From the UHGV virus genome UHGV-0110025: a stretch of DNA of 30,952 nt; one strand, 5' to 3'. Made by a program: the position numbers and the translations under genes. Source of the DNA: a virus. Every line of letters starts with the position of its first letter. The stretch's first letter is position 1. Below, piece after piece: positions 1,469 to 29,736 of the stretch. The notes beneath the pieces were generated by a model. The model worked only from the letters and a program-made list of their open reading frames with translations. It made no database searches and had not been told where the DNA came from.

Positions 1469-2305
1469 TTATACGTGTTTTTCCAATGTGAAAATTACAG
1501 CACCTACTGGTGTGATATCTGTAATGCTGCATTCAAACTCGGCAGACTTATTTGACAACCTGACTTTTCCGCCGGGAAGACGAATTACATCAAAAACATC
1601 AAGAGCGCCGTCAATATCAATTAACCAACGCCCATTACTTATGTTCGAAGCAGAACGGTTGACAAGCCAAGAGGCTCCAACACCTTCAACAAAAATCAAC
1701 TCCTCTGAGTCAGAGGGTATCATCGAGGGGTCTGGATGCCATTCGCCAGCGTCCTTAAGCTCACCCGCTTCAAGGCGAAATTTTTTAATTGAAAAACTTG
1801 ATGTGACCATTTCTCTGTTAGTTCGCATTTGCCCCTTGCCGGTTGCTAACCATTCCAGCGAAACACCAGTATCAAGGGCACAAGTAACAACTACATCGCC
1901 TGGGAAAAAATCACGCCGAACCCATGTGCTAATTGTTCCAGATGATATACCGAGTAAATCACCCAGCTCCTTTTGCATAGAAAAACCGTAAGCATCAAGG
2001 ATGCGTCTCAGAACAGGTTTACCACCTGAAGCCATGACCTTTTCATAAAGCTCTTTGCCCTTCAGGGTCGCACGTGAAGAGTTTGCTTTTGCAAGCTCCC
2101 CTGTCACTAACCATCCGATATCTGCGCCCGTTTCAATAGCACATTCAACAAATACATTGCCCGGAACGCTATCTCTGGCAAGCCAACTGCTTATGTTGTT
2201 GGCATAAATACCAAGTTTTTCGCCAAGTTCTTTTTGCGAGCTAAGTCCATAAGCCGAAAGGATTCTTTCGATAGCCGGAGCCGCACCATCTCCAAATTTA
2301 GCCAT
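1469..2305 (-). CDS. cI: Immunity repressor, 186 CI-like, with tandemly duplicated N-terminal HTH domain
   Basis: aa ~10-72 and ~97-157 are two copies of one motif: RIL.AYG.S.QKELG..LGI....IS.W..RD..PG.V.V.CA..TG....WL.TG, matching the 186 CI HTH type. A ~115-aa C-terminal domain follows (WLIDIDG...LPGGK). Divergent from the apl/cII operon. SD GGTGG upstream of the ATG. Confidence 0.85.
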   Translation of the reverse strand: MAKFGDGAAPAIERILSAYGLSSQKELGEKLGIYANNISSWLARDSVPGNVFVECAIETGADIGWLVTGELAKANSSRATLKGKELYEKVMASGGKPVLRRILDAYGFSMQKELGDLLGISSGTISTWVRRDFFPGDVVVTCALDTGVSLEWLATGKGQMRTNREMVTSSFSIKKFRLEAGELKDAGEWHPDPSMIPSDSEELIFVEGVGASWLVNRSASNISNGRWLIDIDGALDVFDVIRLPGGKVRLSNKSAEFECSITDITPVGAVIFTLEKHV

Positions 2306-4365: not shown

Positions 4366-6588
4366 TTGGCTGTTCAATTCGCTTATCCGTGGAATGCTCC
4401 ACGATCGGCTATAGCCAGCCCATACCTTACTTATAAGCAACAGCATCGCCGCGACCGTATGTTCGCGGCGATGCTGCATGCTAAAAAGGTGCTTTCTCTC
4501 CAGCCCGACTGCGTGCGGTTAGATGTTTATCGCACTGCGGCAGTGCTGGAGCAAAATCAGGGCATTCAACGAGCCAATGCCTTTTTGATCAGCTTCTGCA
4601 AAAAGGCATTGCCGCGTCTTGAATTGGTCGCAAAAAAATACGAATGCGCGGGTATCAACAGCAAGGTATCAACCTCTGTTTTTGGAAGTCATTTTGATAC
4701 CCAGCTTATGCAATATCTGGCGTCACGCATGGTTAATATGGTCGCCCGATATAACCGCCTCCCGGATATGTCGCGCGCTGATGTTGACCTGTTGGCCGCC
4801 GATATTGCTAATTTCATTCGTGGTGAACTTGCCAACATTAATGACCACGGATTCGGCGAGCTTAAAACGCTGTACACCTGGTATAATCGTGCTGGCTTTA
4901 TTTCCCTCCAGTTCAACGTTATCCCCCCCCATTGGGATCGGGTTGCAAAAAAATATGTTGGCGCGGATGAAATCGCACCGGCTATCGCCAAGATGTTTAA
5001 CGATGGGTGGTGGCGTGGTCGTTTGCGCCGGGTTGCAGCTACGTGGCGCGAACACCTGCAAATTGCAGTCGGCAACGTCAGCAAGAAAAAAAACACCTAT
5101 GCGAGTAAAAACTGCGTGACTGACTGGCGTGAACAAAAGCGCCGAACTCGTGAATTTCTCAAAGGTCTGGATCTCGAAGACGAAGACGGCAACCGTATCA
5201 GCCTGATTGAAAAATATGATGGCTCAGTTGCTAACCCTGCGATTCGCCGCTGTGAGCTCATGACTCGCATTCGTGGGTTTGAAAACATCTGTAATGAGCT
5301 CGGTTATGTCGGTGAGTTTTACACTCTGACCGCGCCGTCGAAATATCACGCCACGACTAAAGCCGGTTACCGTAACAGCAAATGGAGCGGTGCCTGCCCG
5401 GCTGACACGCAAAACTATCTAACTGATATCTGGGCGCGTATCCGTGCCAAACTGCATCGGGAAGATGTCCGTATTTTCGGTATTCGTGTCGCCGAGCCCC
5501 ATCACGACGGTACTCCACACTGGCACATGCTGATGTTCATGCTGCCGGAAGATGTTGAATATGTTCGCTCCATCGTCCGTAAATACGCGTGGAAAGAAGA
5601 CCGCCGCGAACTGAAAAGCGATAAGGCAAAAAAAGCACGTTTCCACGCCGAGTCCATTGACCCGGAGAAAGGCAGCGCAACCGGCTATGTTGCTAAATAC
5701 ATATCAAAAAATATCGACGGTTATGCTCTCGATGGTGAAACCGATAATGAAAGCGGTGAACTGCTGAAAGAGACAGCCCCCGCCGTTTCAGCATGGGCTT
5801 CGCGCTGGCACATCCGTCAGTTTCAGTTTATCGGTGGTGCGCCGGTGACGGTTTACCGTGAGTTGCGTCGCCTCGCTGATACCGAAACCGCGCACGGACT
5901 GAGCGTTGAGTTTGCCGCCGTCCATGATGCCGCCGACGCTGGTGACTGGGCTGGTTATGTTAATGCGCAGGGTGGACCGTTTGTCCGTCGCGATGATTTA
6001 CAGGTGCGCACACTGTATGAACCACGTACCGAGCTTAATCAGTACGGTGAGGAAACGGTATGTATTAAGGGGGTCTACGATTCCTCCATAGGTGCAGGTA
6101 GCCCGATTTTAACCCGGCTCACTCAGTGGAAGATTGTTCCGAAGCATGCTGTTGATTTGGCCGTTGACCTTCAGGACGGCAAAGCCGTCCCTCGGAGTTC
6201 TGTCAATAACTGTACGGGAAGTGAAAGCGATCCACCGATACTGGATTTAACAAAACCACAGAGTCGGCGCGAAAGACGAGAGCTGACCAACCGACTCAGG
6301 AAGCAAAAACCAGCAATACGGCGAAAATTCGTCCACGGAATGGATGAGCAAAACGCAGCTATAGCGAAAACTATCGACGAGATACATCTGACAACCAGCA
6401 TCACAATCAGCCGGGGCGAAGCCCTGCACCTGATGGCAGGTGGGAAAAGCTGTTTTGATGGCAAATGGCTAAGGGGAACATCCAAAGGGGAGATATTTTC
6501 CACTGTCCCATCGAACCAAGCTAAAGCTAGTAAAATCCTCAATCGTGTTGCAGCGTTGGTAGAAGCATCAAAGTTAATAGATGATTAA
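4366..6588 (+). CDS. A: Replication initiation endonuclease gpA (rolling-circle HUH nickase)
   Basis: 740-aa ORF. HUH motif EPHHDGTPHWHMLMF and active-site Tyr region GYVAKYISKNIDG. Start as given is a TTG at 4366, immediately after the upstream stop; a downstream ATG start is possible. Confidence 0.92.
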   Translation: MAVQFAYPWNAPRSAIASPYLTYKQQHRRDRMFAAMLHAKKVLSLQPDCVRLDVYRTAAVLEQNQGIQRANAFLISFCKKALPRLELVAKKYECAGINSKVSTSVFGSHFDTQLMQYLASRMVNMVARYNRLPDMSRADVDLLAADIANFIRGELANINDHGFGELKTLYTWYNRAGFISLQFNVIPPHWDRVAKKYVGADEIAPAIAKMFNDGWWRGRLRRVAATWREHLQIAVGNVSKKKNTYASKNCVTDWREQKRRTREFLKGLDLEDEDGNRISLIEKYDGSVANPAIRRCELMTRIRGFENICNELGYVGEFYTLTAPSKYHATTKAGYRNSKWSGACPADTQNYLTDIWARIRAKLHREDVRIFGIRVAEPHHDGTPHWHMLMFMLPEDVEYVRSIVRKYAWKEDRRELKSDKAKKARFHAESIDPEKGSATGYVAKYISKNIDGYALDGETDNESGELLKETAPAVSAWASRWHIRQFQFIGGAPVTVYRELRRLADTETAHGLSVEFAAVHDAADAGDWAGYVNAQGGPFVRRDDLQVRTLYEPRTELNQYGEETVCIKGVYDSSIGAGSPILTRLTQWKIVPKHAVDLAVDLQDGKAVPRSSVNNCTGSESDPPILDLTKPQSRRERRELTNRLRKQKPAIRRKFVHGMDEQNAAIAKTIDEIHLTTSITISRGEALHLMAGGKSCFDGKWLRGTSKGEIFSTVPSNQAKASKILNRVAALVEASKLIDD

Positions 6589-6648
6589 TTTACATCCATA
6601 TCATGCACATACAATACCTGCATGATTCACTTTTTCTCTTCCCATCAT

Positions 6649-6682
6649 TTGCTAATACGTGATACTGTACAAATATACAGTT
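6649..6682 (+). promoter_or_regulatory. LexA-repressed promoter (SOS box), equivalent to 186 p95
   Basis: TACTGTACAAATATACAGTT at 6663-6682 matches the LexA consensus TACTGTATATATATACAGTA at 17/20, with a perfect CTGT-N8-ACAG core. TTGCTA (6649-6654) is a good -35 and the box overlaps the AT-rich -10 area. GGGAGGG SD and an ATG follow at 6703. Confidence 0.75.
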
Positions 6683-6702
6683 ATCATATTGGGAGGGATT
6701 TC

Positions 6703-6888
6703 ATGGTTGGGGAACATTTCAGCCGAACGCAGCAAAAGTGGGCTTGTGTGCAATTCATTGCCGAGATATCTCTGGTTGCAAACTGCAAGCCAGCAGACTT
6801 AAAGCTTGCGCTTACTCTCATTGCTGATCTGGCAAACAGCGAAAACAACGAAGAACCAGAAAATGAAGTCTTTTATAAGGCTGAATAG
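6703..6888 (+). CDS. Small acidic-tailed protein, first ORF of the SOS operon
   Basis: ORF 6622..6888 trimmed to the ATG at 6703, because the LexA box and promoter lie inside the longer version and GGGAGGG sits 6 nt upstream of 6703. It is in the same reading frame as the next ORF, separated only by TAG-GTT. Confidence 0.5.
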   Translation: MVGEHFSRTQQKWACVQFIAEISLVANCKPADLKLALTLIADLANSENNEEPENEVFYKAE

Positions 6889-6891
6889 GTT

Positions 6892-7148
6892 ATGAAAATT
6901 AATCTCACATTGGATAAGAAACAAAAACTAGGCCGACCGGTTATTGATGCCTTTCAATGCGAATTGACCAAGAGGACACTGTCTATTTTTCCGTCAACAT
7001 GTGGTGCCGTCAAGAGAGCACTATGAGTGGTGCTGAGTTGATGGAGTTTGATATAGATTCAGATCGCGAGGCGCTTGATGGTATTCTCCAAGAAATCTGG
7101 GAAGACGAGCAGTTGGCGGTAGTTAATGACAGAATGTGCAGACCATAA
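6892..7148 (+). pseudogene. DinI/Tum-like (antirepressor-type) gene split by a -1 frameshift
   Basis: 6892..7026 encodes MKINLTLDKKQKLGRPVIDAFQCELTKRTLSIF..., like the DinI N-terminus MRIEVTIAKTSPLPAGAIDALAGELSRRIQYAF. The -1 frame from ~6990 to 7148 encodes SVNMWCRQESTMSGAELMEFDIDSDREALDGILQEIWEDEQL, like the DinI C-terminus (...ISEILQETWESADDW). The frames switch at the T5 run 6986-6990. Confidence 0.6.
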
Positions 7149-7194
7149 CCCTATGTCTAGTTGCACGGAGGTTAGAAAAAATGCTGTCCGAATT

Positions 7195-7213
7195 AGCCCT
7201 CTCTCAGAGGGCT
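7195..7213 (+). terminator. Stem-loop after the SOS operon, possible terminator
   Basis: AGCCCTCT-ctc-AGAGGGCT is a perfect 8-bp stem. No immediate U-tract; a T5 run starts 17 nt downstream. Flanked by the direct repeat AAAAATGCTGT (7176-7186 and 7220-7230). Confidence 0.35.
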
Positions 7214-7346
7214 ATGAATTAAAAATGCTGTTTTTGATATGTTAACCTCTTAACAGTTTCATCTTTAAATCTTGTAAAGTAAAACTTTGCGTTTATGATT
7301 GATAAAAATTAAAAAAGTATGAAGAGGCTGTAAAGGAGTTTTATCA

Positions 7347-7862
7347 ATGCCTGGATTCCAAAATGCACAGCAAAATCAATTTGATGATCATGCTCCAGAA
7401 ATGGAGATAAACTTAATCGTAGATGTTGCTGAGCAGCCCGTAGCCTTTACCTATCAATATAGTGAGCAAATTAGCCACCTTGCACCGCAATGTCCGCCAG
7501 CAGAAGCGATTGAATGTGACAAAGAATGCTGGCGCTTCACTCTCAATCCGATAACGGACAGTTGCTTTTGGCCTCCAAAAAGAAGGGTTCCTGAGAGGGT
7601 TGCCTCAGACAGTCAGCAGGAGTGCTCTATGTGGGCGTTGTCTATGTATGAATCAGAGCGACAAGCTGTAGTCGCTTATTCTGGGCTTTCTAAGTCAGTG
7701 AGAAATATTAAGAAAACAATTGGAGATCACCTTGCAAGAGGCACGGTAGCTTGTGGTGATGGTAGATGTATGCCTCCAAATAGAAAAGGCCATTTTGACT
7801 TTCATCCATATTTAGATACTGAGTTCCCTGATGGCTTTCAGGTAATAAGAGCATTACCATGA
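7347..7862 (+). CDS. Hypothetical protein (171 aa), first gene of an accessory pair
   Basis: Strong SD AAAGGAG 8 nt upstream of the ATG. AT-rich upstream region. Its stop overlaps the next start (ATGA at 7859-7862). No domain recognised. Confidence 0.75.
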   Translation: MPGFQNAQQNQFDDHAPEMEINLIVDVAEQPVAFTYQYSEQISHLAPQCPPAEAIECDKECWRFTLNPITDSCFWPPKRRVPERVASDSQQECSMWALSMYESERQAVVAYSGLSKSVRNIKKTIGDHLARGTVACGDGRCMPPNRKGHFDFHPYLDTEFPDGFQVIRALP

Positions 7863-8947
7863 TAAAATTAGATGCTAAAAGAATCACTGCACCGGAGGTC
7901 GGAGATTACTCGTGGTATTCTGACTTGGTGTATTTTGATGGACCACTGATTTGTTTATTTCGAGGAAGTGGCTATAAGGATGCTCTTTATGTTTGGCTTG
8001 ATAATTCAACCAGAGCCAACCGCTGGTGTTTAATACCTGTATCAAGGTCAACTTTAGATTCCTATCTTAATCAAAGAATGAGTCTAAGAGAAATCATACA
8101 ATCAAACGAATATGTTTATATTTGCAATCACTTTGCAGAAACAGGACGAAAAAATTATAGCCGTCTGAGCGTAGATGATTTCCCTGAGGAATATATGCCT
8201 GATGCTGACTCATATTTATATGAAGAAATATGCACCGATGACGCACTATTGTTAAAGCAAGAACGCACATCTAGCTATATGCTAGGACTGGACAACCAGT
8301 TGTTTATAAATGATTTATCAGAAATTCCAAAAATTTTCGAACAATTGTATTCTTTCCACTATGGACTTGCCCACTTGGGCAGAATTTCCATTAGAAATAC
8401 CATGCTGCGATTGATGGGTAGTTGGACTGGTGGATTCTCAGCAGTAAATATTTTCACTGGTTTAAAGAATGTCATTCCTGTCCTGCACCGCCCAGAAGTT
8501 AGCTCACTTCAATATAACTCCCCCGGACATATTGAATTGAACTTGCTTCCTGACTTGGCGCAGAGCGTTCAGGATGTATCTGTTCGTGTTGAAAATGAAT
8601 TTATTTATGACCGTTTAGAGAAAATCTATAAAAACAATTACACATACTTTAAAGATAAAGATCTATCAGGTTTTGATGAGGGTGGAGGAATTGAGTTAAG
8701 GAACATCGACTCTGAAACCACAGAAAATCTTCGTAAGCGTGTTAGAATTTTCTTTAGGTGTTTAGGTTGGAAAACCTATCAAGCGCAGTTTGATATGATC
8801 GGTGCCCATCCCTTGCAGCAGTTACGCGCAGTTATGGCGTATTACAGACGCCTGAAAACATTACGAGAATATATTGTGGCAGATAAATTATTCATTGGTC
8901 ATTCGCGAGTGCCGGTAGAGCAAATTACTGTGAATACTGAAAATTAG
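7859..8947 (+). CDS. Hypothetical protein (362 aa), second gene of an accessory pair
   Basis: Long uninterrupted ORF in AT-rich DNA. Translationally coupled to the upstream gene. No catalytic motif or TM segment recognised. Confidence 0.8.
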   Translation: MIKLDAKRITAPEVGDYSWYSDLVYFDGPLICLFRGSGYKDALYVWLDNSTRANRWCLIPVSRSTLDSYLNQRMSLREIIQSNEYVYICNHFAETGRKNYSRLSVDDFPEEYMPDADSYLYEEICTDDALLLKQERTSSYMLGLDNQLFINDLSEIPKIFEQLYSFHYGLAHLGRISIRNTMLRLMGSWTGGFSAVNIFTGLKNVIPVLHRPEVSSLQYNSPGHIELNLLPDLAQSVQDVSVRVENEFIYDRLEKIYKNNYTYFKDKDLSGFDEGGGIELRNIDSETTENLRKRVRIFFRCLGWKTYQAQFDMIGAHPLQQLRAVMAYYRRLKTLREYIVADKLFIGHSRVPVEQITVNTEN

Positions 8948-9311: not shown

Positions 9312-10316
9312 CTAATTTACATGTATGTAGAGTTCACCGTCGCCAGACCAATCGGGACACTCTAAAACAAGCCCAAACTGCTTGAATATTTCATCAATGA
9401 TTATTGTTATCTCCCGAAAATCACCAAAACCTGTAATGTGCTGGTCATTAAACTTCCCATAAAGATTCTGAAAAGCAATGCCTAATTCTGATAATTGATA
9501 TCTTATCTTTGAGTTGGATAGTGTAAGGGATAGCTTTGGATCGTATTCTTTAATATTGATGTTTAGAGAATGGACATAACCCATCGCATAAGCATAAGAG
9601 TTGATGATTAGCCTGATACGTTTTTTTACTTCGAGATACATGTCATTCAGAGAAATATTACCGTACTTATAACCCCAGATGAGTTTTTCAATCTCGTCAG
9701 ATACTTCATTTACAACAGTGTCAAGATTCTCTAAAAATAAATCAATAGTTTCTTGAGGGGCAGACCCCGAAGACATGTAATTAGCGAGATATTCAGACCA
9801 TGCACGCGTGGCTGAGATAAGAAGCGCGCTACCATACTCGTTGACTGTAAAATTTTGGGCTAAGCATGTTAGTAAGTTTTTTTCATGTACGTGCACTAAT
9901 TCATGGTGAATGCGATGGATGACTGCGAGGTATCCTTCTTCTTTCAGTTTTAAGAAGCTACCATCATTGAAAAGCTCAACAAAAAAATCAATCGATAGCA
10001 CAAGGGTATATTCTTCACATAGCCCATCATTGCCAATTTTTGTTACTAACTGCCCGACGGCTGCGCCCTGTTTGCTATTGGTAAATGAACTAGGGGATTT
10101 GTGTTGGTAAGAGGATGTTACCTTTTGAAGAGCTTCACTGAAGTTATAGGAAACAATCACGCATTTTAATTTGGAGATATCAAGATTGAGATTTTTTGTT
10201 AAAGCTCGGATAGCTTCTAGTGTGAAATTACCGATATTATTTGCTTCTTGCTCAGTAGCGAAACCTTCGAGGGTTATTTTAAAATCAGTTTCCAAAATAT
10301 TAATCTCCGCGCCCAT
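9312..10316 (-). CDS. Hypothetical protein (334 aa) with HExxH zinc-metallopeptidase-like motif
   Basis: Long ORF in very AT-rich DNA. HELVH is encoded at 9891-9905 (context AVIHRIHHELVHVHEK). No signal peptide or TM segment. No obvious SD. Confidence 0.78.
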   Translation of the reverse strand: MGAEINILETDFKITLEGFATEQEANNIGNFTLEAIRALTKNLNLDISKLKCVIVSYNFSEALQKVTSSYQHKSPSSFTNSKQGAAVGQLVTKIGNDGLCEEYTLVLSIDFFVELFNDGSFLKLKEEGYLAVIHRIHHELVHVHEKNLLTCLAQNFTVNEYGSALLISATRAWSEYLANYMSSGSAPQETIDLFLENLDTVVNEVSDEIEKLIWGYKYGNISLNDMYLEVKKRIRLIINSYAYAMGYVHSLNINIKEYDPKLSLTLSNSKIRYQLSELGIAFQNLYGKFNDQHITGFGDFREITIIIDEIFKQFGLVLECPDWSGDGELYIHVN

Positions 10317-18704: not shown

Positions 18705-19143
18705 ATTAACCGCGCTGCAGGAACGCCTTGCCGGTCTGATTGCCAGCCTGTCACCGGCGGCACGTCGGCAAATGGCGGCTGAGATTGCGAAAAAGCTGCG
18801 TACCAGTCAGCAACAGCGTATCAAGCGCCAGCAGGCACCCGACGGCACCCCGTATGCGGCACGAAAGCGCCAGCCGGTGCGGAGCAAGAAAGGTCGGATT
18901 AAACGTGAAATGTTCGCCAAACTGCGCACCAGTCGCTTTATGAAAGCCAAAGGCAGCGACAGTGCGGCGGTGGTGGAGTTTACCGGCAAGGTGCAGCGCA
19001 TGGCGCGGGTTCATCAGTACGGCCTCAAAGACCGGCCAAACCGTAACAGCCGGGATGTGCAGTACGAGGCGCGCCCGTTGCTCGGTTTCAATAGTATAGA
19101 TATGAGAATTATTGAGCGGTTAATAATTGGGGCTTTGGATTAA
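18697..19143 (+). CDS. S: Tail completion protein gpS
   Basis: 148 aa, position and size of P2 S. The last ~18 codons (from ~19090) are encoded in AT-rich DNA. Confidence 0.87.
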   Translation: MSELTALQERLAGLIASLSPAARRQMAAEIAKKLRTSQQQRIKRQQAPDGTPYAARKRQPVRSKKGRIKREMFAKLRTSRFMKAKGSDSAAVVEFTGKVQRMARVHQYGLKDRPNRNSRDVQYEARPLLGFNSIDMRIIERLIIGALD

Positions 19144-19171
19144 TTATGATCTAATATATTATTTTGTGATG

Positions 19172-19192
19172 AGGCTGGATAAACACCAGCCT
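19172..19192. terminator. Stem-loop between convergent S and the HIT gene
   Basis: AGGCTGG-ataaaca-CCAGCCT is a perfect 7-bp stem, followed on the plus strand by TGATTTTAT. Lies between two convergent stop codons (19143 and 19198). Confidence 0.5.
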
Positions 19193-19197
19193 TGATT

Positions 19198-19842
19198 TTA
19201 TAGTTTGAAATCTGCGTAATTATCAATAACCTCTAGAACACCGCTGATATTGTTATCTCTGCGCCAATTCCAATTGCCATGTATCAAATTTGCATTAGAA
19301 TAAAGATATCTAAGGAACTGAGATGGTAAGAGTGGTTTGTTGCATAAAAATTCATCATAACTATTACTCATATACCACACATATCCATTTTTAATGTCAA
19401 AACTTAAATTCTCACCTTCAATTTTCTTAAAGTTAATTTCTTTATTTAGAGCATTTTCAAACTCTTGTGTATAATAAACACAGTGTATATGAGCGTGAGA
19501 AATGCACCCTCCTGAACGATCTATATTTTCACCTGCTCCGCTTTCAAAGAAAATTAGAGATCTACCAGATTGGTGGATTATAAATTCATTAAGTTCTCGC
19601 AGAATCTCCTTGCCATTACTCCGGGTATCTCGATCAAGAGCAGCAAAGGAGTTGATATGCCGCTTAGGAATCAGCATCACATGCGAATTATTTAGCGGGC
19701 CAATACTAGGTACAATTAGAAAATCATTTGTTTCTGCAATGATATTTTTCTTGTCATTTACGATTTCATCGTATCCTTTGATAAGGCTAATGCCATTTAT
19801 TTCATCGCATATTCCACAGAACGAATTACAAGAATTATTCAC
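19198..19842 (-). CDS. HIT-family (histidine triad) nucleotide hydrolase/transferase-like protein with C-terminal extension
   Basis: GTG start at 19842 with AGGAGA SD 8 nt upstream. N-terminal CGIC. FLIVPSIGPLNNSHVMLIPKRH core. His triad HAHIH is encoded at 19483-19497. A ~90-aa extra C-terminal region follows. DNA is very AT-rich. Confidence 0.85.
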   Translation of the reverse strand: MNNSCNSFCGICDEINGISLIKGYDEIVNDKKNIIAETNDFLIVPSIGPLNNSHVMLIPKRHINSFAALDRDTRSNGKEILRELNEFIIHQSGRSLIFFESGAGENIDRSGGCISHAHIHCVYYTQEFENALNKEINFKKIEGENLSFDIKNGYVWYMSNSYDEFLCNKPLLPSQFLRYLYSNANLIHGNWNWRRDNNISGVLEVIDNYADFKL

Positions 19843-20407
19843 GTTTATTGTCTCCTGGTTTTTTAGGGAGCAATTTTTCAGCCCAAGATGCGAGTCGGCT
19901 TAGAACTAAGTCTGAAAAATATCCTAATATAAAACAAATCGAGAATGCAATTTTGGTCTTACCATGCCCTTTAATGGAGGATACAAACGTATCCGGAGAT
20001 AATATCGTATAAGAACAAAAAGCCACTAAAGCAGCTAAGAACGGAATAAAAATCCTCCAGTAGAACTTATGGGATTCCCAAGGAAAATTATACTGATTGT
20101 TTTTCCCTCTAGCAGTTACTCTATAAAACCATTTTGCATTATACACCCACCCTCCAAAAAAACCGCCAAGAATAGAAAACAAAGATATTTTATTATTATA
20201 TGACAGCTCAAAAACAAATTGGAAAAGAAAGGCGAGAATGCAACCTATTACAAAAAGAACTATTAAATAAGCAAATTCGAATTTTATTTGTTCACAATCG
20301 TTATTAAAATAAGGCACAACCTCATCATCGCCTAAGGTTTTTTTTCTTTCAGTCATTTGCCAAACACCTTCATTTTTTACTGTGAGCCAGGGTAATTGCA
20401 TATTCAA
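19835..20407 (-). CDS. Integral membrane protein, about four predicted TM helices
   Basis: Hydrophobic segments FAYLIVLFVIGCILAFLFQFVF, ISLFSILGGFFGGWVY, FYWRIFIPFLAALVAFCSYTIL and IAFSICFILGYFSDLVL. The 3' end overlaps the HIT gene start by 8 nt. 20407 is a TTG; the real start may be the ATG at 20401, or the ATG at 20356 (MTERKK, preceded by GAAGG). Confidence 0.8.
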   Translation of the reverse strand: MNMQLPWLTVKNEGVWQMTERKKTLGDDEVVPYFNNDCEQIKFEFAYLIVLFVIGCILAFLFQFVFELSYNNKISLFSILGGFFGGWVYNAKWFYRVTARGKNNQYNFPWESHKFYWRIFIPFLAALVAFCSYTILSPDTFVSSIKGHGKTKIAFSICFILGYFSDLVLSRLASWAEKLLPKKPGDNKRE

Positions 20408-20414
20408 CTTGGCT

Positions 20415-20466
20415 ATTCTAATTAATTCTCACAAGATTTCATAGATGTTGAGTAGACCTCTCAGAA
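20415..20466 (-). promoter_or_regulatory. Candidate promoter region for the TM/HIT pair
   Basis: On the minus strand: a good -10 TAGAAT (20420-20415) without a clear -35, and an alternative TTCTGA-17 nt-TATGAA (20466-20438). Ambiguous in AT-rich DNA. Confidence 0.3.
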
Positions 20467-20532
20467 GTTGTTTCATTCCTCACAGAATCCATCTCGATTG
20501 CCACTAATCTTGCCGGGCGTCATCCTTCCCAT

Positions 20533-21168
20533 ATGAAAAATCTAAATTCTTTGCAAGAAATCGCACGCGCGATCCGAAATCTCATCCGTACCGGCATCGT
20601 TAGCGACGTAGACCTCAAGGAGGGGCTATGTCGTATCCAGACCGGGGGGATGCAAACCACTTGGCTGAACTGGCTGACCACCCGAGCCGGTCGTTCGCGG
20701 ACGTGGTGGGCTCCCTCGGTCGGTGAGCAGGTTCTGCTGCTGGCAATCGGTGGCGAGCTTGATACCGCTTTCGTGCTGCCGGGTATTTTCTCCGACGATA
20801 ACCCCGCCCCGTCTGCCTCGGCGGATGCGTGGCATGTGGCTTTCCCTGATGGTGCGGTCATTGAGTACGAGCCCGAAACCGGCGCGCTGACGGTCAGCGG
20901 CATAAAAACGGCCGACGTGACGGCATCGGAGTCCATCACCGCAACCGTACCGCTGGTACTGGTGAAAGCCTCGACCAGTATCACCCTCGACACCCCGGAG
21001 GTGATTTGCACCAATAAGCTAACGACGGCGACGCTTGAGGTGCAGAAAGGCGGCAAGATGAGCGGCAATATCGAACATACCGGCGGGTCACTGTCGTCTA
21101 ATGGCAAGGTACTCCACACCCATAAACACCCGGGCGACAGCGGCGGGCAAACGGGGGCACCGTTATGA
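20533..21168 (+). CDS. V: Baseplate spike/assembly protein gpV
   Basis: 211 aa. RAGRSRTWWAPSVGEQV and C-terminal GKVLHTHKHPGDSGG are hallmark gpV sequences. Confidence 0.94.
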   Translation: MKNLNSLQEIARAIRNLIRTGIVSDVDLKEGLCRIQTGGMQTTWLNWLTTRAGRSRTWWAPSVGEQVLLLAIGGELDTAFVLPGIFSDDNPAPSASADAWHVAFPDGAVIEYEPETGALTVSGIKTADVTASESITATVPLVLVKASTSITLDTPEVICTNKLTTATLEVQKGGKMSGNIEHTGGSLSSNGKVLHTHKHPGDSGGQTGAPL

Positions 21169-26800: not shown

Positions 26801-29237
26801 TAACCTGAGACTTGAGGTTTTGCTGAAAGCGGTCGACCAGGCGACCCGACCGCTTAAATCCATCCAGACCGCGAGTAAAACCCTGTCGGGCGATATTCGC
26901 GACACACAAAAAGGGCTGCGTGACCTGAACGGGCAGGCCGCGAAAATCGACGGCTTTCGCAAAACCAGCGCTCAACTGGCCGTAACCGGCCAGTCGCTGG
27001 AGAAGGCAAAGCGCGAGGCTGAAGCGCTTGCCACGCAATTCAAAAATACTGAGCGCCCGACGCGAGCGCAGGCACAGGTGCTCGAATCCGCAAAACGTGC
27101 CGCCGAGGGGCTGCAGGTTAAATACAACAGCCTCACCGAGTCGGTTAAACGCCAGCAACGCGAGCTGGGTGCCGCCGGTATCAATACCCGCAATCTGGCA
27201 AACGATGAGCGGGGGCTTAAAACACGTATCAGCGAGACGACGGCGCAGCTCAACCGGCAGCGTGAAGCATTGGCGAAGGTCAGCGCACAGCAGGCGCACC
27301 TAAACCGAGTGAAAGAGCGATATAAATCGGGTAAGGAGCTTGCCGGTAACATGGCCGCTGCAGGTGCTGCCGGGGTCGGTATTGCGACAGCGGGAACGAT
27401 GGCCGGGGTTAAATTGCTGATGCCCGGTTATGACTTTGCGCAAAAAAACTCCGAGCTGCAGGCTGTGCTCGGGGTCGATAAGCAGTCGCCAGAAATGCAG
27501 GCGTTACGCAAACAGGCGCGCCAGCTCGGTGACAATACAGCCGCTTCTGCTGATGATGCAGCCAGTGCGCAGATTATCATTGCAAAAGGTGGTGGTGATG
27601 CGGCGGCTATAGCGGCCATGACACCTGTGACTCTCAACCTGTCGCTTGCAAACAAAAAAACAATGGAGGAAAACGCGCAACTGTTGATGGGGACAAAAGC
27701 CGCCTTTCAACTTTCTAATGACGCGGCTGCACATATCGGTGATGTTCTTTCAACCACGATGAACAAAACCACCGCTGATTTTCAGGGACTAAGTGACTCA
27801 TTAAGTTACCTTGCCCCTGTTGCGAAAAATGCTGGGGTGAGTCTTGAACAGGCGGCGGCGATTACCGGCACACTTCATGATAATAACATCAGGGGGTCAA
27901 TGGCTGGGACTGGCGGCGCTGCTGTTATAACGAGACTACAGGCACCCACAGGCAAAGCATACGATGCTCTCAAAGAGCTGGGAGTTAAAACCTCAGACAG
28001 CAAAGGCAATACGCGCCCGCTATTTACCATCCTGAAAGAAATGCAGGCCAGTTTTAAGCGCAACAATCTTGGTACCTCACAAAAGGCCGAGTACGTGAAA
28101 ACGATATTCGGCGAGGAGGCTATGAAGTCTGCAAGTGTCCTTATGGCGGCAGCGGCAAGCGGAAAACTCGATAAGCTAACTGCCACGATAAAGGATTCAG
28201 ACGGTAAAACAGAGGAGCTGGTCAAGGTTATGCAGGATAACCTCGGCGGCGACTTCAAGGAGTTCCAGTCAGCATATGAGGCGGTCGGCACTGACCTCTA
28301 TGACCAGCAAGATAGCTCATTGCGTCAGCTAACTCAGACAGCAACACGGTATGTGCTAAGGCTTGATGACTGGATCAAAGACAACAAGGAGTTAGCGGAA
28401 ACTATCGGCATCATCGCCGGTGGTGCGCTGGCGCTGATTGGTATCATCGGCGGCATTGGTCTCGTTGCGTGGCCGGTTGTCATGGGGATTAATGCAATTA
28501 TCGCCGCTGCTGGCGTGCTGGGTACGGTCTTTACTGTCGTCGGTAGTGCCATTGCGACAGCGCTCGGTGCGATTACCTGGCCGATAGTGGCCGTCGGTGC
28601 GGCGATTGTGGCGGGGGCGCTACTCATCCGTAAATATTGGGAGCCCATCAGCGCATTTTTCTCGGGAGTGATTGAAGGCATCATGAGTGCCTTTGCCCCA
28701 GTCGGGGAAATGTTAGCTCCACTGGCTCCCATTTTTGATGGTCTCGGCGAGAAACTGCGCGGCGTCTGGCAGTGGTTTAAAGACCTGATAGCACCGGTTA
28801 AGGCCACGCAGGAAACGCTTGATAGCTGCAAAAATGTCGGCGTCATATTTGGTCAGGCACTGGCCTCTGCCTTGATGGCTCCGCTCAATGTTTTTAACAA
28901 GCTGCGCAGCGGTGTCGACTGGCTTCTCGAAAAGCTCGGCATCATCAACAAAGAGTCGGACAGCCTCGACCAGACCGCCGCCAAAACCAATGCCGCCACA
29001 CAGGGTAATTCCTACATCCCGGCAACCAGCACATATGGCGGCTATCAGGCTTATCAGCCAGTTACCGCACCGGCGGGGCGCTCTTACATTGACCAGAGCA
29101 AAAGCGAATACAACATCAATCTGCCGGGAGGTGTTGCGCCGGGGCATCAGCTTGACAGACAACTACGCGACACGCTCGAACAGATTGAGCGCGATAAACG
29201 CGCCCGCCAGCGTGCCAACATGACCCACGACTATTGA
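26793..29237 (+). CDS. T: Tail tape measure protein gpT
   Basis: 814 aa. Ala/Gly-rich with a central hydrophobic glycine-zipper region. Position after E/E'. Confidence 0.94.
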   Translation: MSNNLRLEVLLKAVDQATRPLKSIQTASKTLSGDIRDTQKGLRDLNGQAAKIDGFRKTSAQLAVTGQSLEKAKREAEALATQFKNTERPTRAQAQVLESAKRAAEGLQVKYNSLTESVKRQQRELGAAGINTRNLANDERGLKTRISETTAQLNRQREALAKVSAQQAHLNRVKERYKSGKELAGNMAAAGAAGVGIATAGTMAGVKLLMPGYDFAQKNSELQAVLGVDKQSPEMQALRKQARQLGDNTAASADDAASAQIIIAKGGGDAAAIAAMTPVTLNLSLANKKTMEENAQLLMGTKAAFQLSNDAAAHIGDVLSTTMNKTTADFQGLSDSLSYLAPVAKNAGVSLEQAAAITGTLHDNNIRGSMAGTGGAAVITRLQAPTGKAYDALKELGVKTSDSKGNTRPLFTILKEMQASFKRNNLGTSQKAEYVKTIFGEEAMKSASVLMAAAASGKLDKLTATIKDSDGKTEELVKVMQDNLGGDFKEFQSAYEAVGTDLYDQQDSSLRQLTQTATRYVLRLDDWIKDNKELAETIGIIAGGALALIGIIGGIGLVAWPVVMGINAIIAAAGVLGTVFTVVGSAIATALGAITWPIVAVGAAIVAGALLIRKYWEPISAFFSGVIEGIMSAFAPVGEMLAPLAPIFDGLGEKLRGVWQWFKDLIAPVKATQETLDSCKNVGVIFGQALASALMAPLNVFNKLRSGVDWLLEKLGIINKESDSLDQTAAKTNAATQGNSYIPATSTYGGYQAYQPVTAPAGRSYIDQSKSEYNINLPGGVAPGHQLDRQLRDTLEQIERDKRARQRANMTHDY

Positions 29238-29250
29238 GGGGGATTAAACG

Positions 29251-29736
29251 ATGATGCTTGCTCTCGGAATGTTTGTGTTTGAACTTCGCACCCTGCCTTA
29301 CCAGTCGATGCAGCATTCGAAAGATTATCGCTGGATGTCCAATGACCGGGTGGGTAAACCACCTGCCTATCAGTTTCTTGGCGAGGGGGAAACCTCTATA
29401 CAGCTTGCTGGTACGCTATACCCCGCTATCACTGGCGGTTGGATCTCACTAAAGGCTGTAGAGGTGATGGCCAATGAAGGCAGAGCGTGGCCGTTGATAG
29501 AGGGAACCGGAAATATCCTCGGGATGTATATCGTCGATAAAGTATCGACTACACGCACCGAGTTTTTCAGTGATGGTGCGGCCAGAAAGATTGATTTCAC
29601 GCTTTCGCTAAAACGGGTTGATGAATCGCTGACAGAGATGTTTGGTGACCTGAATAAACAGGCCAGTGAGCTTCTCGGCTCTGCCGGTAATTTGACAGAT
29701 AAACTGCAGGGTATGCCCGGAGGTTTCACTGCATGA
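29251..29736 (+). CDS. U: Tail protein gpU
   Basis: 161 aa. MMLALGMFVFELRTLPYQ is the conserved gpU N-terminus. GAGGGGG SD. Confidence 0.9.
   Translation: MMLALGMFVFELRTLPYQSMQHSKDYRWMSNDRVGKPPAYQFLGEGETSIQLAGTLYPAITGGWISLKAVEVMANEGRAWPLIEGTGNILGMYIVDKVSTTRTEFFSDGAARKIDFTLSLKRVDESLTEMFGDLNKQASELLGSAGNLTDKLQGMPGGFTA

Follow-up and report, generated by a model that had tools for sequence, protein, structure and literature searches.

A predicted SOS operon with an intact antirepressor gene and a doubly frameshifted DinI-like gene in a PSP3/186-type prophage

The 30,952-nucleotide (nt) viral sequence UHGV-0110025, referred to here in its whole length as the window, covers the greater part of a P2-like prophage that belongs to the 186/PSP3 group (Eganvirus), as determined by tblastn with all annotated PSP3 proteins. 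The region immediately 3' of the replicase gene A, which ends at position 6588, is probably the SOS-induction module of a PSP3/186-type prophage, in which the antirepressor gene tumA is intact, the accessory DinI-like gene tumB is broken, and inducibility has been kept. In this lineage, tumB is a pseudogene created by two 1-nt insertions/deletions (indels), a case of ordinary gene decay. An earlier note on this DNA had proposed a Tum-type SOS operon under LexA control in a 186-like prophage, which our analysis supports, and a DinI-like gene split by a single -1 frameshift at a T5 run, which it corrects. The operon contains the following features.

6639-6644 (+), -35-like hexamer TTCCCA of the p95-type SOS promoter, assigned by homology alone from its alignment with the annotated -35 hexamer TTCACA of 186 p95
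6663-6682 (+), LexA box TACTGTACAAATATACAGTT, 17/20 to the consensus; it is conserved between the window, PSP3, and 613R3 and aligns with the LexA site annotated in 186
6703-6888 (+), tumA, intact 61-amino-acid (aa) antirepressor gene (ATG 6703, TAG 6886-6888), 87% identical to PSP3 TumA
6892-7122 (+), tumB remnant over the full ancestral length of the DinI-like gene (231 nt, equal to that of intact homologues)
6892-7026 (+), open reading frame (ORF) of the N-terminal fragment, 44 aa, ending in ...VKRAL and a stop; the tblastn match to PSP3 TumB residues 1-43 ends at 7020
7017-7021 (+), site of the 1-nt deletion; the MAFFT gap falls after 7020, and 0/46 intact homologues are gapped there
7023-7148 (+), ORF of the C-terminal fragment, 41 aa (TAA 7146-7148), in the -1 frame, open back to 6957, with an ATGA overlap
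7110 (+), 1-nt insertion of C, missing from 46/46 homologues in the MAFFT alignment; the conserved C-terminal SWR and stop become QLAVVNDRMCRP and stop

The box TACTGTACAAATATACAGTT differs at three positions from TACTG(TA)5CAGTA and is the sole such site in the window; zero sites of this quality were expected by chance in 100 shuffles of the window. It matches base for base the annotated LexA site and -10 element of phage 186 p95, with its first six bases (TACTGT) corresponding to the -10 homologue. The spacer between the -35 and -10 elements is 18 nt in both 186 p95 and the window. Furthermore, the block AATACGTG.TACTGTA....TATACAGT is invariant across 186, PSP3, 613R3, and the window. The box and its overlap with a promoter had been noted previously and are confirmed here. 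By homology, LexA is predicted to bind at 6663-6682.

The tumA start codon has a strong Shine-Dalgarno sequence ahead of it, GGGAGGG (-10.7 kcal/mol). The TumA protein matches phrog_1993 at E 5.7e-31, and the exact protein is present in 125 blocks of a public collection. BLASTP gave no alignment between TumA and 186 Tum, and their relationship was visible by profile-profile comparison only, in which hhalign detected a distant similarity to residues 13-44, in the N-terminal half of 186 Tum (E 2.2e-5, probability 76%, 32 columns). A comparison of TumA with solved structures yielded no match.

The junction between the two genes consists of the tumA TAG, a GTT codon, and ATG 6892, all in one frame, so the succession of the 61-aa ORF and the DinI-like N-terminal half at 6892-7026 is as first described. 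The tumA TAG and the tumB ATG are in one frame with a single sense codon between them in the window (6886-6894; locus L001, 1491-1499) and in every PSP3-type relative examined. Amber read-through at this one-frame junction would therefore yield a 186-like fused protein. Fels-2 and PSP3 have been reported to carry a tum gene split by a stop codon (PMC3121763). Among 43 relatives from IMG/VR, six are split exactly like tumA-stop-tumB and 37 are fused as in 186. TAG 6886 had been suspected to be a nonsense mutation in an ancestral single ORF. Because the tumA-stop-tumB layout is the published PSP3/Fels-2 arrangement, this codon belongs to the usual PSP3-type organization rather than being a lesion of this lineage.

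The presumed target of TumA lies between the integrase gene and the operon, on the opposite strand.

1469-2305 (-), cI, PSP3-type immunity repressor gene; PF07022 (two stretches) and PF16452

The CI protein (278 aa) contains two tandem PF07022 helix-turn-helix (HTH) stretches (best at residues 98-161) and a C-terminal PF16452 domain, and other HTH families match residues 12-51. No Peptidase_S24 domain appeared among its Pfam matches, in agreement with the earlier assignment of a repressor without a LexA-like autocleavage domain. CI is 78% identical to PSP3 CI, and the long form is common to both, whereas 186-type CIs align in two pieces with less than 40% identity and the 186 CI is shorter. 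The latter consists of 192 aa with a single HTH domain. PSP3-type tumA was found in seven phages (613R3, RCIP0057, Midge, SEN1, SI22, SW9, and PSP3), and the same seven provided the best CI matches. This co-variation of the tumA type with the CI type points to a cognate TumA-CI pair.

In the proposed switch, LexA would be bound on the box overlapping the -10 element of the p95-type promoter, and its cleavage upon DNA damage would allow transcription of the operon. The first gene, tumA, would supply a 61-aa antirepressor that inactivates the PSP3-type CI, a repressor presumably incapable of self-cleavage, and the prophage would be induced. The second gene, tumB, would formerly have encoded a 76-aa DinI-like modulator of RecA filaments, until the loss of one base at 7017-7021 brought a stop codon into frame at 7024 and an extra base entered at 7110; this lesion is real and inherited. 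The phage probably stayed viable despite it because the DinI-like module is accessory. TumA-CI antirepression is predicted from homology. The LexA box, promoter, Shine-Dalgarno sequence, and tumA are all intact, and we infer from this that SOS induction would be kept through TumA and that the DinI-like accessory alone would be lost.

The stretch from ATG 6892 to TAG 7122 is as long as tumB of 613R3 and the GTG-started 186 Tum95.5, and the TumB counterpart in 186 is the C-terminal half of Tum. After repair in silico, the tumB product scored 41.2 bits against Pfam DinI (PF06183; cut-off, 24.2) and matched PHROG 189 at E 1.2e-25. It also aligned with the DinI structure 1GHH at E 6e-4 over DinI residues 1-73, including the acidic C-terminal helix. 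The native sequence contains no contiguous 76-81 aa DinI-family ORF above the threshold, and the window operon encodes no intact DinI-like TumB or C-terminal Tum domain: the C-terminal fragment reached 16.9 bits against the 24.2-bit cut-off, and the N-terminal fragment gave no match.

The frame break had previously been assigned to the T5 run (6986-6990). However, frame 1 remains homologous for 10 codons further (PSTCGAVKRA, compared with PSTRVTVKKG in 186), and the MAFFT gap after 7020, the PHROG 189 profile, and the PSP3 TumB tblastn match all place the junction later. In the PHROG 189 profile, residues 1-42 of the N-terminal fragment correspond to positions 71-113, and residues 1-29 of the C-terminal fragment to positions 116-144. 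The junction between profile positions 113 and 116 independently locates the break at the end of the N-terminal fragment and the first residue of the 41-aa fragment. The deleted base itself can be placed only within about 2 nt (7017-7021). Since Gly is kept there in all 27 distinct intact proteins, the most parsimonious interpretation is that one G of the Gly-43 codon was lost (GGC to GC); its restoration would give ...VKRGTMSG....

The second indel, the extra C7110, had been overlooked when a single indel was proposed. Its removal restores ...WEDESWR, followed by the stop codon TAG 7120-7122 in the original frame. Frame 1 contains three stop codons between the two indels, the first at 7024, and the indel pair therefore gives no full-length product. 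All 46 homologues are single-frame, and the intact two-frame arrangement that the earlier note had suggested looking for in homologous prophages was found in none of them.

The DinI-like C-terminal half does lie in the -1 frame, ending at TAA 7146-7148, and its ATG 7023 overlaps TGA 7024-7026 as ATGA, the coupling site recognized earlier. In the ancestral gene, this ATG encoded an internal Met, that of ...KKGSMTG..., and as a start codon it has weak Shine-Dalgarno pairing (-3.9 kcal/mol). Public assemblies annotate the 41-aa fragment as a gene (P0035, 47 contigs), and it is present in 96 blocks of the collection. DinI sits deep in the RecA filament groove, where each molecule touches five protomers (PMC9926225); we therefore consider half-proteins unlikely substitutes and infer a loss of function of the tumB fragments.

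The operon is a mosaic: it resembles PSP3-type phages at the DNA level (85-86%) as far as ~6927-6957, some 12-22 codons into tumB, and for the remainder of tumB the best match (75-78% nt identity) is the DinI-like domain encoded by 186-type tum genes of the fused form. At the protein level, the body of tumB is closer to the 186 Tum DinI-like domain (74%) than to 613R3-type PSP3-like TumB (57-59%).

Over 6590-7350, 18 independent loci (NCBI genomes, an ENA metagenome, and Logan assemblies of SRA runs) proved collinear with the window, from which they deviate by only 0-2 single-nucleotide polymorphisms (SNPs) and without length differences, and the T5 run and both indels are found in all of them. 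The segregating sites were 6991 and 7064 (window plus nine loci) and 6976 in one further locus; so small a number, from loci picked for an identical protein, does not suffice to test for selection within the lineage. No intact near-identical tumB ancestor was found in a 5.8-billion-protein collection, in which the best intact relative was 74% identical. The 44 related IMG/VR loci were all uninterrupted and likewise at most 74% identical. The exact pattern across the deletion site had no match in the GTDB species representatives, and complete E. coli genomes carried only the 186-type fused tum, with 75-78% nt identity.

A comparison of the repaired tumB with 186 gave a pS of 0.70, at which synonymous sites are saturated, a pN of 0.116, and a dN/dS of ~0.06, and intact gene pairs gave 0.04-0.12. 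The similarity to intact pairs implies that most of the divergence accumulated under purifying selection and that the lesion is recent by comparison. In public assemblies, the prophage adjoins E. coli yfiL-yfiR-dgcN-yfiB, with a flank 100% identical to complete E. coli genomes. Among nine carriers, 2,960 nt of host flank show up to 51 SNP differences (1.7%), with host SNPs reaching ~100 nt from the prophage end, and the prophages of those carriers differ by only 2-29 SNPs in 17.1 kb. Because near-identical prophages occupy E. coli backgrounds with flanks up to 1.7% apart, the simplest reading is that a phage with tumB already broken recently lysogenised divergent E. coli strains.

Frameshifted tumB alleles were also detected in other lineages. 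E. coli A38 and TUM14697 (loci L068 and L069, 1195-1425), which are identical here, have the T5 run shortened to T4 at codon 33, in a run homologous to the window T5, and an A5 run extended to A6 at codons 11-12. The two indels compensate each other and leave the gene length unchanged. The T-run deletion occurs alone in a Logan contig (L072, 1273-1502), and the resulting 46-aa fragment stands for 51 contigs. In Raoultella ornithinolytica AP021983.1 (L070, 3001-3230) and a further Logan contig (L071), a 1-nt deletion affects the same Gly-43 codon as in the window. This allele is without the second indel and has GTA in place of ATG, and it produces the same 44-aa truncation, ending in ...KKGL and a stop; by our own count from the sequences, the Raoultella and window N-terminal fragments are ~59% identical. 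Two further sequences, P0040 and P0053, shift frame after ~codon 59 and ~codon 49, respectively. Both are single-member clusters of one contig each and could be sequencing errors. In the Raoultella prophage, A and tumA are in addition separated by a reverse-transcriptase gene (PF00078), and a transposase gene of an insertion sequence (IS) lies downstream.

In total, at least five independent frameshifted alleles were identified (the window lineage, Raoultella, E. coli A38/TUM14697, P0040, and P0053), of which two are affected in the same Gly-43 codon and two have paired compensating indels that keep the length. The two multi-sample frameshifted E. coli alleles account for 51 and 47 contigs of the protein collection, a number similar to the 61 and 44 contigs of two intact PSP3-type TumB clusters annotated as E. 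coli; none of these counts is adjusted for clonal sampling. The recurrent disruption fits a dispensable tumB under weak selection. It is doubtful, although compatible with these observations, that tumB loss has instead been recurrently selected, rather than arising by neutral decay, in enterobacterial PSP3-type prophages, or that the fragments keep a RecA-directed activity. If loss were selected, a prophage-borne modulator of RecA filaments might, for example, be costly or mistime induction; if the fragments were active, this would especially concern the 41-aa acidic-helix peptide, possibly re-initiated at the ATGA.

Several other explanations of the split gene were considered. Homopolymer indels are a frequent artefact, and the T5 run lies inside a region with both frames open, which had suggested a sequencing or assembly error. 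The 18/18 agreement of independent assemblies on T5 and both indels excludes such an error as far as assembly agreement can show, and the true indels at 7017-7021 and 7110 are not in a homopolymer; the probability of an artefact is negligible. A programmed -1 ribosomal frameshift, at T5 or near the stop, could in principle yield full-length TumB, given that the frames overlap by ~70 nt and that, in AUU UUU C, tRNA-Phe could slip back by one base and pair again with UUU. However, the 0 frame of 6957-7026 contains no slippery X XXY YYZ heptamer, a shift at T5 would swap 10 homologous residues for unrelated ones, and a second, +1, shift would be required for the conserved C-terminus. Moreover, the 46 homologues need no shift to encode the protein, the other frameshifted tumB alleles break elsewhere, and an Rfam scan of 6400-7500 gave chance-level matches only. 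Programmed frameshifting is thus very improbable. We also regard it as unlikely that the split tumB is still functional as a 44-aa piece and a 41-aa piece re-initiated at ATGA 7023-7026, with both pieces jointly, or the acidic C-terminal helix alone, acting on RecA filaments. The ATG/TGA overlap would permit termination-reinitiation, gene callers predict the 41-aa ORF across many assemblies, the conserved ...DREALDGILQEIWEDE helix is retained in it, non-synonymous change relative to intact relatives is not in excess, and the divergent Raoultella prophage is hit in the same Gly-43 codon. Against this, ATG 7023 is merely an inherited internal Met with weak ribosome pairing and is replaced by GTA in Raoultella, and the second indel destroys the conserved SWR C-terminus. 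Both fragments fall below the Pfam DinI threshold, and one lineage variant (C6991A) alters the family-invariant Pro of the FP motif. With ~8 known frameshift events, two in one codon are not improbable (~0.3, a rough estimate). Of the earlier suggestion that the split is tolerated, the part concerning the phage holds, as the carrier lineage is otherwise intact and has spread between divergent hosts, and the part concerning fragment function finds no support.

The prophage might also have lost SOS inducibility, as first envisaged, if the DinI-like part were needed for Tum function, leaving an uninducible or decaying element. In 186, the antirepressor and the DinI-like part form one 146-aa protein, shorter products are annotated as modulating induction, and tumB is clearly broken here. 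However, tumA is a separate, intact gene whose Shine-Dalgarno sequence is strong and whose LexA-controlled promoter is undamaged, and all other conserved genes are intact. A passage in PMC3121763 assigns the PSP3 antirepressor to the upstream gene, citing a personal communication via Bunny et al. 2002, and activity is thereby reported for this gene alone. In addition, near-identical copies in divergent E. coli imply recent infectious spread after the lesion. A loss of inducibility consequently seems improbable, and retained induction through TumA is the preferred reading. Some points nevertheless weigh against it. LexA binding, TumA activity, and inducibility rest on homology, and the sufficiency of PSP3 TumA alone is a personal communication cited second-hand. 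The GenBank record of 186 describes short DinI-like Tum products that 'modulate SOS induction', so that tumB loss could alter induction kinetics. The low dN/dS and the ATGA overlap would fit continued use of the fragments as well, and the collections searched yielded no near-identical intact ancestor by which the two indels could be ordered or dated.

Both the PSP3/186 SOS operon and its two-gene tumA/tumB layout are already known from the literature, and the distinctive feature of the present case is the double frameshift of tumB in a widespread phage lineage of E. coli. Salmonella phage PSP3 (AY135486; tumA 29134-29316, tumB 29320-29553) resembles the window in having tumA/tumB directly after A, the same LexA box/promoter block, and the TAG, one codon, and ATG succession. 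In contrast, PSP3 tumB is intact and encodes 77 aa, whereas the window tumB carries the 1-nt deletion and the 1-nt insertion. Coliphage 186 shares the LexA box overlapping the -10 element, the order of antirepressor and DinI-like part, and the downstream cargo (orf97 in 186). Its Tum (146 aa, CI antirepressor) is encoded by one ORF with a linker of ~11 codons, unlike the two genes of the window. The dinI-gfoA/gftA operons of Gifsy-1/2/3 (Lemire et al. 2011, PMC3121763) are likewise LexA-repressed and encode both a DinI homologue and a small antirepressor; they differ in that dinI comes first, the phages are lambdoid, and the repressor belongs to another family. In the Gifsy operons, the repressor is uncleaved and the DinI homologue is dispensable for induction, as non-polar deletions of the dinI homologues in Gifsy-1 and Gifsy-3 were without effect on induction (PMC3121763). 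E. coli DinI (1GHH; RecA-DinI complex, 7YWA) is chromosomal and whole, unlike the phage-borne gene of the window with its 44-aa and 41-aa fragments.

For annotation, tumA should be recorded as the antirepressor gene and tumB as a pseudogene with two indels, and the prophage is not to be deemed uninducible. In the window lineage and the other frameshifted alleles, the DinI-like module has been knocked out naturally in phages that are otherwise intact, and the window lineage additionally occurs in divergent hosts.

The operon is followed by two anti-phage defence genes in the position of 186 orf97.

7347-7862 (+), PD-T4-10 A; PADLOC E 6.5e-69
7859-8947 (+), PD-T4-10 B; PADLOC E 3.3e-169

A consensus scan found no terminator-like site between tumB and these genes, and the only hairpin there, near 7194-7214, is without a T tract. 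The first PD-T4-10 gene has its own Shine-Dalgarno sequence (-8.2 kcal/mol), and a promoter-like site is located at 7272-7299. Because no terminator-like site separates them from the operon, the PD-T4-10 genes might be SOS-inducible from the LexA-controlled promoter. Between PD-T4-10 and the portal gene, a 334-aa ORF (9312-10316, -) matches phrog_11743 (unknown function), without matches in Pfam, PADLOC, or NCBIfam.

In the tblastn analysis of the remaining prophage, Int, gp28, CI, gp30, CII, Fil, orf79, orf80, A, Q, P, O, N, M, L, X, Y, K, LysB, LysC, R, S, V, W, J, I, FI, FII, E, T, U, and D each gave one full-length match. Identities to the PSP3 proteins were mostly 76-100%, with I at 67%. 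TumB was the sole conserved PSP3 protein without one full-length match in the window. The tail-fibre genes H and G have diverged from PSP3, part of the PSP3 cargo genes is missing from the window, and the pag/ogr gene falls outside it, as the window stops shortly past D. In one carrier assembly, GCA_052416695.1 (L009, 756-2886), the replicase A is split into 170-aa and 531-aa calls, which is a frameshift or assembly error; the other carriers are without this split. A DUF2511/YebY-like gene (1122-1460, -) between int and cI is homologous to PSP3 gp28 (89%). Relative to PSP3, a 1.4-kb insertion (19143-20533) is located between the tail genes S and V. It contains two ORFs on the opposite strand (19198-19842, -, and 19835-20407, -), encoding a 214-aa HIT-domain protein and a 190-aa protein without a family match. 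This insertion is probably cargo, in the position occupied by orf30 in P2.

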